DNA of 5,051 nt from a virus (taxonomy: Duplodnaviria > Heunggongvirae > Uroviricota > Caudoviricetes), in the IMG/VR virus record IMGVR_UViG_2548876948_000012, one strand, 5' to 3'. A program made the position numbers. Positions 3,001-5,051 of the stretch are shown here, in pieces. Position 1 is the stretch's first letter. Every line of letters begins with the position of its first letter.

Positions 3001-5051
3001 TAATACGCCGACTTCCGGTAAGCAGTCGTACGCAAAAGGTTCATCCATTGCTTTGGTCAGCCCGGTTGAATTCTCAACCTCTTCATGGCGTCGCGCGGTT
3101 TTGTCTCTCGATGAACATCAGAAAGCATGGTTGCTTTGGTGTTACAGCGAAAGCGTTCGATGGGGGCATCAGGTCACCATAACGCAATGGGCATGGAGCG
3201 AGTTTAAAGATTTGTTAAGTAACAGAAAAATTGCAGGTAAGACACTGGATCGCCTGAAGACGTTAATCTGGCTGGCTGCACAGGATGTGAAGAGCGAACT
3301 TGCAGGGCGTGAGGCCTATGAATACCAGACACTGGCATCATTGGTGGGAGTGACAACAAAAAACTGGTCCGAGACATTTACTGAACGCTGGGTTGCAATG
3401 AAGCACATTTTTCTACAGCTTGATAGTGATGCTTTATTGCTTGTGACGAGAACACGTTCAAAACAAAAGGCAGCATTTTTACAGCAAAATATTGCAAAAC
3501 TGGATTAAAAGCCATATACTTCATGCAAATTTGGTATGTTGTAAAAAATGTATAAACCCGCTGCCGAGTGGGTTTTTTTTATGCCCTGAGTTGTACTTGT
3601 ACGGTAAACATGCTGGCTGCTATGTAATAGAGTTTTTTTAGCCTGTAACCTCTTGACGGCATTGAATTGCTTTTGTTATGAGTTGTAAGCCAATGTTATC
3701 ATCTTGTATTGGGGTGGTTATGAAGGATGGTGCGCTGCTCAGGAGTTCTTCACTTTTTATTGCCTACATGGGATGCCTTGGATGGGGGAGTGCTTATTTC
3801 TATGGATGGGGTACTTCTTTTTACTACGGCTTCCCATGGTGGATTGTAGGTGCAGGTGTTGATGATGTTGCCAGAAGTTTATTTTTTGCAGTTATCGTCA
3901 TTGCTATATTTCTTATCGGTTGGGGTATTGGTGTTGTATTCTTTTTCGCAGTGAAAAGAAAACATTCTATGCAAGAGCTAAATGTATTTCGCCTTTATTT
4001 TGCTGTGGAATTATTGTTTGTGCCGGCAATTATTGAGTTTTCTATATTGAGACAGAAGATTCAGGTACCTCTTTTGCTACTGTCAGCAGCGATTGCGCTG
4101 GCGGTTACAATTTCGATAAGATCTTATGGGCGATTTTTATCGGTATCATGCTTCTATGATAAGCCATTTATAAAAAAACATTTTTTTGAGATTGTGATGA
4201 TTGCTTTTGTGGCATATTTTTGGCTTTTTTCATTTCTGACAGGATATTACAAACCACAGTTTAAGAAAGAATATGAAATGATTAATTATAATGATGGTTG
4301 GTATTATGTTCTTGCTCGTTATGATAATTGTCTGGTTTTGTCTACTTCTTTCAATGCAGGTAGTAAAAGGTTTGTCATTTATCAATCAGCACAAGATAAG
4401 AATCTTCAGGTTGATATTGTAAGGACCAGAATTTAATTGGCTGCATAAATAATATTTTAAGTTGCAAGTTGGCTATTCGTAGGAATAGAACCTTAGGCAT
4501 GCTGAATGCGTTTTCTGAACATTGTTTTATAAACTGTGTCTGCTTGCTGTTGTGATCCTGCTTTTAGTGATGGTGATGATGGATTTCACCAGCAGGATAA
4601 TGTTGGTACTGACTGATGGCGCTCTGGTCTGCGGCATTGTGGTATTGCTGTGGCCGATGATGAAAGAACAGAATGAATAATTCTTGACTTTTTTGTTTAC
4701 TGTTTATTAAAAAATCAACCGCATGGTGAATCCTCCTTGGAGGGGCTAAATGATCGAGTTTTAAGGGCACGTAGCGAGTTCTGTTTGATCATTGCAGAAC
4801 TTAGCGGGAGGCGCCATGCGTACATCACTAGTGTTATTCCTTTTATCATTTTCCTTGTGAGTTCTGGCTGCGCATTGCGCAGCTTTTTTTTATGACCTGC
4901 CACTGGCAGATGGTCATCCTGTGATTTGATTCCGCTTCCGGCTTTTTAACTCTGTTCCTCTACACGGGAGAAATTCGATGTCGATTAAACATTACGATGT
5001 TGTCAGGGCGGCGTCGCCGTCAGACCTTGCGGAAAAGCTGACACACAAACT

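Follow-up and report, generated by a model that had tools for sequence, protein, structure and literature searches.

A segment of a phage-434-like lambdoid phage matches the gene for the small regulatory RNA PasD2

Main

We analysed a 5,051-nucleotide (nt) stretch of a Caudoviricetes genome (IMG/VR record IMGVR_UViG_2548876948_000012; hereafter the window, to which all coordinates refer unless another sequence is named) and, by sequence identity, assign positions 4721–4891 of its plus strand to the gene for PasD2, a small regulatory RNA (sRNA) known since 2021 from lambda-like phages of pathogenic Escherichia coli. With PasD2 described in 2021 and its distribution in a 2026 preprint, this is a rediscovery of a known segment. 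We are highly confident in the overall reading that PasD2 is a trans-acting sRNA borne as a moron, with its own promoter, gene and terminator, in the late region of a phage-434-like lambdoid phage.

Identity of the RNA gene

PasD2 of E2348/69, a strain of enteropathogenic E. coli (EPEC), was described by Pearl Mizrahi et al. (2021; PMC8550237), whose Table S6 gives its coordinates as NC_011601 741157–741328 (172 nt, plus strand) and those of PasD1 as NC_011601 1060260–1060432. We aligned both NC_011601 loci with the window (alignment A1). PasD2 mapped to 4721–4891 with 171 of 172 positions matching, the sole difference being a C missing from the terminator's 3′ arm, and the match to the PasD2 locus extended from 60 nt upstream to about 90 nt downstream of the RNA. 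Because this alignment is near-identical over the full length, we equate the two. In EPEC, PasD2 was detected by RNA sequencing (RNA-seq) as a 172-nt transcript, and Northern blots, which were unable to tell PasD1 from PasD2, corroborated the predicted sizes of the Pas sRNAs (PMC8550237). A reading of the window from its sequence only had suggested, among other possibilities, a structured small RNA of about 170 nt starting near 4720, and this suggestion agrees with the PasD2 transcript. Both genes are highly expressed in uninduced EPEC, with BaseMean values of ~11,000 for PasD2 and ~8,700 for the other PasD gene (PMC8550237).

The same sequence-only reading proposed looking for the segment in other prophages, and it proved to be widely conserved. 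Positions 4660–4990 have an identity of 99.7% with Escherichia phage 434 (OL657226) and of 97.6% with phage 2B8, and the segment was found in 697 of 5,426 complete E. coli genomes, nearly all at ≥95% identity, the carriers being mostly O26, O111, O103, O145 and O157 strains; relatives were also found in IMG/VR. We regard the segment as more than a chance arrangement because it is conserved in these genomes and lies one base from a validated sRNA, and not because of the number of motifs in it. Table S6 of PMC8550237 names EcOnc13 as the homologue of PasD in enterohaemorrhagic E. coli (EHEC); a literature search on EcOnc13 found nothing in the papers searched, so that this table is the sole source of the synonym.

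Fold and family of the RNA

Judged by its sequence, PasD is a diverged relative of the Rfam family STnc100 (RF02076), in line with the reported relationship between STnc100 and the EPEC PasD sRNAs (Zhu, Shabalina and Storz, 10.64898/2026.05.13.724894). In a scan run with an E-value threshold, the full length of the STnc100 model matched 4691–4895 with 41.5 bits (E = 1.1e-6), against a gathering score of 47; the window and the PasD2 and PasD1 loci all fell short of the gathering threshold, and canonical relatives scored 77–132 bits.

To assemble the family, IMG/VR viral contigs were scanned with the 14-base conserved core CATGGTGAATCCNCC, and chance matches were removed by requiring GGGAGG and the 3′ strand of the closing helix P1. 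This left 111 occurrences, in which 44 different canonical 5′ domains and 54 different 3′ parts were represented. The same scan of genome contigs gave, among the matches listed, only chance matches in unrelated phyla, and loci L004–L123 were disregarded. We then aligned 34 distinct 5′ domains, including that of the window (alignment A2), for which RNAalifold returned a consensus of five helices. MAFFT misplaced the 3′ end of the window 5′ domain in A2 (GCGCCATGC under CACCCGGC), so we read P1 of the window off its sequence and the folds instead.

Helices P1 (GCAUGGUG with CACCAUGC), P2 and P5 (CCGGG-AGGCA-CCCGG) are near-invariant in sequence across the family. P1 is kept in 33 of the 34 members, and GGGAG is invariant in all 34 sequences of A2. 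Covariation sits at the base of P3 and in P4, with seven pairs showing compensatory changes; five of the eight P4 pairs do so, and columns 84/107 are G–C in 16 sequences and A–U in 13. Overall, 96.4% of the cells of A2 are compatible with pairing, compared with 93.2% after column shuffling and 37–44% with slid partners, and the observed number of double-change pairs was reached in 1 of 500 shuffles.

When its RNA was folded alone, the window gave a minimum free energy (MFE) of −55.6 kcal/mol (z = −2.3). In canonical relatives GGGAGG lies inside the P5 hairpin, 12 nt from the ATG, and a 7-nt deletion relative to the canonical CACCCGGCACCATGC strips the 3′ arm of P5 from the PasD branch; in the MFE structure of the window RNA, CCUCCU pairs with the GGGAGG freed in this way (4806–4811), lengthening P1. 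Compared helix by helix with STnc100, the window RNA can form P1, P2 and P4 and lacks P5, and its MFE structure replaces the local P2 by CCUCCU/GGGAGG. Forcing the local P2, CCUC[CUUG]GAGG, gave −50.2 kcal/mol, a cost of 5.4 kcal/mol, and regained the family P4. We read GGAGG and GGGAGG as conserved elements of structure and probably also of protein contact, a role that, for the GGA motifs, we infer.

The 5′ and 3′ parts of these RNAs are exchanged among relatives. At least seven unrelated 3′ seed/terminator modules follow a near-identical 108-nt 5′ domain (for example in loci L125, L136, L172, L135, L181, L226 and L239), and conversely some loci combine a canonical 5′ domain and another seed with the promoter, terminator and downstream flank of the PasD type (the L159 group, L246 and phage Evi, L247). 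Such swaps point to cassette-like recombination at the P1 3′ strand.

Family genes also occur in multiple copies. One IMG/VR contig (UViG_2861053794_000003; L129 2265–3380, minus strand) holds four tandem STnc100-family genes within 1.1 kb, each with its own 3′ part and scoring 132, 97, 104 and 77 bits, and two copies lie ~470 nt apart on each of L132, L144, L145, L156, L170, L208, L219 and L222.

Promoter

We favour an own sigma-70 promoter for pasD, in which TTGACT and TAAAAA, 18 nt apart, would serve as −35 and −10 elements. The −35-like hexamer, which the sequence-only reading had called perfect, is present but matches TTGACA at five of six positions; it is identical in PasD1, PasD2 and phage 434 and reads TTGATT in hybrid relatives. 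Relatives keep TTAAAA or TAAAAG at the same distance from GCATGG, and canonical relatives, although wholly different in upstream sequence, carry an extended −10, TGTTAAAAG, at a constant distance from GCATGG. Chromatin immunoprecipitation with exonuclease treatment (ChIP-exo) gave an RpoD signal at STnc100 promoters in Salmonella LT2 (PMC10794520). Our preference rests on the spacing to the RNA 5′ end, the −10 element kept in relatives, the RpoD signal at STnc100 and the abundance of the RNA in uninduced lysogens.

Canonical STnc100 copies carry a further upstream element, GTTGACTGTTGTCTGG, a TTGNCTG direct repeat at −45 to −30 from the RNA start (for example, L126 6970–6990) that is missing from the window. 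At ~25 nt upstream of the extended −10 it is too far away for a −35, and it could be a regulator-binding site.

Terminator and seed

The 3′ end of PasD2 coincides with an intrinsic terminator, already recognized in the sequence-only reading as GC-rich with a T8 tail, that consists of the stem GCTGCGC/GCGCAGC (4867–4873 and 4877–4883), an ATT loop, an optional G4866–U4884 pair and T8 at 4884–4891. A consensus scan ranked it first in the window (eight pairs, six of them G–C). The missing C (GCGCAG-C versus GCGCAGCC; 4883–4884) leaves a stem of 7 bp plus G–U rather than 8 bp, and the same C-less variant is present in one IMG/VR contig, L218. The terminator helix had a pair probability of 0.99–1.00 in both the 172-nt sRNA and a 280-nt read-through RNA, and no antiterminator competing with it was predicted in the folds of these two RNAs. 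Just 5′ of the terminator the window carries UGUGAG, the core of the seed, which is complementary to CUCACA(GG); the targets of PasD1 and PasD2 recovered by ligation of interacting RNAs followed by sequencing (RIL-seq) share the motif CUCACA/CUCACAGG (Fig. S5 and motif table, PMC8550237).

Directly after the U8 tail, at 4892–4917 of the plus strand, lies an imperfect inverted repeat, ATGACCTGCCA-C-TGGCAG(AT)GGTCAT, which the PasD1, PasD2 and phage 434 loci have kept and hybrid relatives have kept in part, and which would fall in the 5′ untranslated region (UTR) of the esterase mRNA in read-through transcripts. A weak hairpin followed by T5 is found past this repeat, at ~4932–4949.

Open reading frames within the RNA gene

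The sequence-only reading placed two mini open reading frames (ORFs), each led by a Shine–Dalgarno motif, in a leader or attenuator upstream of the next gene. The first of them follows a self-complementary pair, CCTCC (4732–4736) and GGAGG (4739–4743). Pair and 4-codon ORF do exist, although CCTCC lies 43 nt, not about 30 nt, from the end of TTGACT; the ORF occurs only in PasD-type copies, in the variable P3 region that is not alignable across the family, and we judge it not functional. A 14-codon ORF likewise follows GGGAGG, and its stop codon ends 5 nt, rather than 6 nt, before the terminator stem, but GGGAGG is the invariant family motif, predicted to be paired, and not a Shine–Dalgarno sequence. 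The ATG at 4816 is itself part of the family-invariant P1 3′ strand. A 1-nt insertion in PasD1, the O157 copy and several IMG/VR variants frameshifts the 14-codon ORF, which then runs for at least 30 codons through the terminator, and in 54 distinct relatives the ORF from the equivalent ATG ranges from 2 to >49 codons, encodes unrelated peptides and mostly crosses the terminator.

Attenuation would require a ribosome on the 14-codon ORF to mask the 5′ arm of the terminator, coupling esterase expression to leader translation. The geometry fits such a cis-acting role, as the stop codon (4858–4860) is 5 nt from the stem and GGGAGG is 4 nt upstream of the ATG, and some STnc100 copies of strain EDL933 show ribosome coverage of 1.5–3.2. 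We nevertheless consider it very improbable. The Shine–Dalgarno-like motif and AUG lie in a stable helix, the predicted unpaired probability being ≤0.10 for GGGAGG, 0.00 for AUG 4816 and ≤0.08 for the AUG of the 4-codon ORF, and folding for the alternative terminator/antiterminator structures that the sequence-only reading envisaged yielded nothing that competes with the terminator (pair probability ≥0.99). The frameshifted PasD1 and O157 copies are still expressed sRNAs, neither the length nor the sequence of the ORF is conserved in the family, and the terminated transcript builds up and works in trans, on Hfq as well as CsrA. Moreover, PasD1 is the same unit followed by holin and lysozyme genes instead of an esterase gene, which shows that the pasD unit is not tied to the latter. 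We found at pasD neither a conserved translatable ORF nor a competing antiterminator, the two features expected of a transcription attenuator with a leader peptide.

Protein-coding annotations also overlap the RNA gene. The phage 434 record (OL657226 43214–43402) has a sense 62-residue ‘putative membrane protein’, CPT_434_70, over the sRNA (window 4737–4895, plus strand), and in RefSeq the PasD1 and PasD2 loci are overlain by antisense hypothetical proteins (WP_012578864.1, or pseudogenes), for example at NC_011601 1060300–1060698 (minus strand). The TTG ORF corresponding to CPT_434_70 has 52 residues in the window, its frame being changed by the missing C. Sense ORFs of this type are probably ORF-calling artefacts, because 1-nt indels alter the TTG ORF between copies and it crosses the terminator. 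A dual-function RNA that codes in addition for a short hydrophobic peptide, be it MRTSLVLFLLSFSL or the 52–62-residue CPT_434_70 product, could draw on the existence of ORFs with Shine–Dalgarno-like motifs, on the annotated GenBank coding sequence and on the ribosome footprints reported for some family members; we hold it to be just as improbable as attenuation, as 1-nt indels between PasD1, PasD2 and the window break or alter both ORFs, the terminated RNA would lack the stop codon of the TTG ORF, relatives show no conservation and the start sites are predicted to be structurally occluded. We conclude that no mini-ORF or TTG ORF here is a conserved coding feature, and PasD2 is best read as a trans-acting RNA.

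Genomic setting

The features of the unit and its flanking genes are collected in Table 1.

Table 1. Coordinates of pasD, its elements and its flanking genes in the window
Feature	Position	Strand	Remarks
DUF3927/TciB gene, upstream neighbour	4522–4680	+	Pfam PF13064, E = 3.4e-14; same neighbour in E2348/69, O157 and phage 434
−35-like hexamer TTGACT of the putative pasD promoter	4684–4689	+	18 nt upstream of TAAAAA; 5/6 matches to TTGACA
Putative −10-like hexamer TAAAAA	4708–4713	+	7 nt upstream of RNA 5′ end G4721
PasD2 small RNA gene	4721–4891	+	171 nt here, 172 nt in E2348/69
P1 5′ strand GCAUGGUG	4721–4728	+	pairs with 4812–4819 in MFE and constrained folds
P2 hairpin UCCUC[CUUG]GAGGG	4731–4744	+	includes CCTCC/GGAGG pair and GGA motif 4739–4741; homologous to family P2 CCCCU-GUGCGG-AGGGG
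4-codon ORF ATGATCGAGTTTTAA (MIEF)	4750–4764	+	6 nt after GGAGG; judged not functional
P4 hairpin GAGUUCUGU / GCAGAACUU	4776–4802	+	family helix 4; forms in constrained fold of window RNA
GGGAGG (GGA motif, context CGGGA)	4806–4811	+	invariant family motif, not Shine–Dalgarno
P1 3′ strand CGCCAUGC	4812–4819	+	contains ATG of 14-codon ORF
14-codon ORF MRTSLVLFLLSFSL	4816–4860	+	judged fortuitous
Seed region CUUGUGAG	4854–4861	+	core UGUGAG 4856–4861; complementary to CUCACA / CUCACAGG target motif
Intrinsic terminator, T8 tail	4866–4891	+	PasD2 3′ end maps to 4891; U tail is the 3′ end to which Hfq is expected to bind
SASA/DUF1737 sialate esterase gene (nanS-p type), downstream neighbour	4978–5051	+	cut by window end; Pfam DUF1737; annotated in phage 434 and E2348/69

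According to the phage 434 annotation and Pfam, the window encodes, in order, NinG, NinI phosphatase, an N-terminal remnant of lambda Q, LpxR (opposite strand), a Q82-like antiterminator, a 252-residue membrane protein, DUF3927/TciB, pasD and the SASA/DUF1737 sialate esterase, whose start is the ORF that the sequence-only reading had noted at 4978. Pfam matches were obtained for LpxR, Phage_antiter_Q, DUF3927 and DUF1737, and E2348/69 and phage 434 have this order too. The RNA begins 41 nt past the end of the DUF3927 gene, and its own end lies 87 nt ahead of the first base of the esterase gene, spacings that are identical in E2348/69. This setting corresponds to that described by Zhu, Shabalina and Storz (2026 preprint, 10.64898/2026.05.13.724894), in which Q and LpxR are conserved neighbours of pasD and phage 2B8, one of the two phages listed there as carriers, has pasD immediately upstream of the sialate esterase gene. 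A tRNA scan of the window found none.

The lambda-type Q remnant (29 codons, N-terminal; 1170–1259, plus strand) is followed by the opposed lpxR gene for a lipid A deacylase (1385–2344, minus strand) and then by the complete Q82-type gene, and prophage PP2 of E2348/69 has the same arrangement, which suggests replacement of the Q module with insertion of a moron.

The TTGACT hexamer resembles the −35 of lambda pR′, the terminated transcript is ~170–200 nt long and the unit is positioned ahead of late genes, features that would suit a relic or duplicate of a lambdoid pR′–tR′ unit that, like lambda 6S RNA, yields a promoter-proximal transcript for Q loading. The Q82-like gene, though, ends at 3508 and is separated from pasD by 1.2 kb and two protein genes, whereas a promoter-like site and a terminator of the gene's own sit directly downstream (3492–3582). 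Copies of pasD/STnc100 furthermore occur with three Q types and downstream of stx2B, and the RNA is abundant in uninduced lysogens. We therefore regard a pR′–tR′ origin as extremely improbable, even more so than attenuation, and retain the reading of pasD as a separate moron.

The region that follows the Q82-like gene (3492–3584, plus strand) comprises a promoter-like TTGCAA, 17 nt and TATACT (3492–3520) and a terminator at 3554–3582, from which a transcript of ~60 nt would result. It has a weak Rfam STnc240 match (28 bits versus a gathering score of 55) and has the look of the phage's genuine pR′ and first late terminator.

Hfq and CsrA as partners

Hfq-dependent stability has been reported for the Pas sRNAs as a set, and Hfq RIL-seq recovered chimeras of PasD1 and PasD2 with core and virulence mRNAs including aceE, uspA, tir, cesF, bfpB and perB (PMC8550237). 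PasD2 was also recovered on CsrA, where, according to an August 2026 preprint on the CsrA interactome of EPEC, the complex of the yjbJ 3′ UTR with PasD2 is the most abundant CsrA ternary complex, with >23,000 chimeric fragments and 20% of the chimeric reads (10.64898/2026.08.12.744399).

CsrA-binding sRNAs such as CsrB/CsrC, McaS and PasE usually display at least two GGA motifs in the loops of hairpins. PasD2 has two GGA motifs (4739–4741, at the P2 loop/stem junction, and 4807–4809), of which only CGGGA fits MNGGA, and this one is paired in the MFE structure. The yjbJ 3′ UTR (E2348/69, L248 38796–38860) presents GUACAAGGAUGU in the loop of a UGUACA/UGUACA hairpin. This GUACAAGGAUGU matches RUACARGGAUGU, the CsrA consensus from systematic evolution of ligands by exponential enrichment. 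The yjbJ 3′ UTR also has a CCCUCC tract complementary to the GGAGGG of PasD. In a crude local search the PasD–yjbJ duplex reached −21 kcal/mol, compared with −19.4 ± 2.5 for shuffled sequences, and thus showed no complementarity beyond controls. A whole-length RNAduplex run of PasD against the yjbJ 3′ region was discarded as meaningless, and we do not claim base pairing. We find it as plausible that the two RNAs occupy the two faces of a CsrA dimer as that PasD and yjbJ base-pair.

These data raise the possibility that PasD2 is mainly a CsrA partner, a guide or sponge whose GGA-bearing 5′ domain docks on one CsrA face while the 3′ seed or a second RNA engages the other. The membership of PasD2 in the most abundant CsrA ternary complex, the GGGAG that is invariant in 34/34 relatives together with a second GGA in P2, the GUACAAGGAUGU-bearing hairpin of the yjbJ 3′ UTR and the precedent of PasE, a CsrA-guiding sRNA, all speak for this. 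Yet only a single motif is of the MNGGA type and the MFE fold predicts pairing for it, the P2 GGA is replaced by GGU or GGC in about one-third of relatives, local complementarity to yjbJ is no better than in shuffled controls, and Hfq RIL-seq already explains the seed and the target set. We consider a mainly CsrA-directed role possible but doubtful; it overlaps the favoured reading of a trans-acting sRNA with Hfq-class features and does not exclude it.

A broader and more speculative proposal, which we rate as unlikely, is that STnc100/PasD constitutes a modular guide-RNA system in which the invariant 5′ domain (P1, P2 and the GGGAGG hairpin) docks CsrA alongside a 3′ end bound by Hfq, and in which phages swap 3′ seed/terminator cassettes and thereby retarget host regulators. 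Under this proposal, the P5 deletion and the C-to-U change in P2 would have rewired GGA presentation in the PasD branch.

Proposed mechanism

In the favoured reading, transcription would most likely start at G4721 from the own sigma-70 promoter in lysogens and would stop at 4891, at the end of the U8 tail of the GC-rich hairpin. The structured 5′ domain (about nt 1–99), made up of P1 as the closing helix, the P2 and P4 hairpins and, between them, a variable P3, would stabilize the RNA and probably contacts proteins, CsrA being the leading candidate because of the GGA motifs and the CsrA RIL-seq data. The U-rich single-stranded 3′ part, the seed CUUGUGAG and the terminator would form a base-pairing module of the Hfq class, through which PasD2 would pair with host and virulence mRNAs on Hfq while also being bound by CsrA. 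In the lysogen, the terminator would prevent pasD transcription from reaching the esterase and lysis genes. Once the lysogen is induced, the polymerase coming from pR′ (~3492–3520), modified by the Q82-like protein, would, by analogy with lambdoid biology, read through the pasD terminator, and such read-through into the esterase gene is plausible.

Several observations weigh against this reading. The transcript evidence comes from the E2348/69 EPEC copies and not from the window itself. The EPEC 5′ end is an RNA-seq estimate rather than a mapped primary 5′ end, so that the RNA could instead be processed from the upstream tciB mRNA, and a consensus promoter scan of the window did not call the pasD promoter, whose weak −10, TAAAAA, lacks the final T that the scan required. 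The single-sequence MFE fold departs from the family consensus in the P3/P4 region. In differential RNA-seq, the two pasD genes showed log2 fold changes of −0.18 and +0.55 between the strains compared (PMC8550237), and with so little change a dependence on Hfq for stability is less evident for PasD than it is in the case of PasA, PasB and PasC. The PasD targets are RIL-seq partners, none of them functionally validated in the literature. Finally, ribosome profiling in EDL933 found footprints on some STnc100 copies, with coverage of 0.04–3.2; the entry STnc100_1 (902843, NC_002655) could not be mapped to a pasD locus, the same coordinate in CP008957 being a different place, and this coverage is therefore not assignable to a PasD copy.

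The main value of the assignment lies in correcting annotation, as the classic phage 434 and its relatives carry PasD2 where protein genes are annotated. The Shine–Dalgarno-like motifs that invite a coding or attenuator reading are conserved elements of RNA structure and probably of protein contact. Together, the conserved 5′ domain, the at least seven exchanged 3′ modules and the new CsrA data provide a testable idea of why the 5′ domain is so conserved.

Comparison with known systems

The closest counterpart of the window RNA is PasD2 of E2348/69, from which it differs by the missing terminator C and by its replicon, a phage-434-like genome rather than prophage PP2. With PasD1 and PasD2 it shares the promoter region, the UGUGAG seed, the terminator and a location downstream of LpxR and Q, between the DUF3927 and esterase genes in the case of PasD2.

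STnc100 is a Gammaproteobacterial sRNA that prophages of EHEC and Salmonella carry in several copies, one being EcOnc27/sRNA103 downstream of stx2B. It resembles PasD in its homologous 5′ domain (P1, P2 and P4), the invariant GGGAGG, the −10 region, the terminated RNA of ~170–200 nt and the location in lambdoid late regions, often beside esterase genes. PasD differs from it in scoring below the gathering threshold, in having lost P5 through the 7-nt deletion and in its P2 5′ arm (CCUCC versus CCCCC), and canonical STnc100 copies have a 3′ seed region and terminator to which those of PasD bear no relation.

PasE (10.64898/2026.08.12.744399) is likewise a prophage- or island-encoded EPEC sRNA with GGA motifs that is found on CsrA with a second RNA. 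It has no sequence relationship to PasD2 and is 56 nt long, with a 5′ seed, two canonical GGA hairpins and CsrA-dependent stability, whereas PasD2 is 172 nt long, has a 3′ seed and is also found on Hfq, its link to CsrA being known from RIL-seq chimeras.

Lambda 6S RNA, finally, is comparable as a short terminated transcript ahead of the late genes, at whose terminator read-through by Q-modified polymerase is expected. In contrast to it, pasD is not adjacent to Q, a separate promoter/terminator pair follows Q, and the pasD RNA is trans-acting and made in lysogens.

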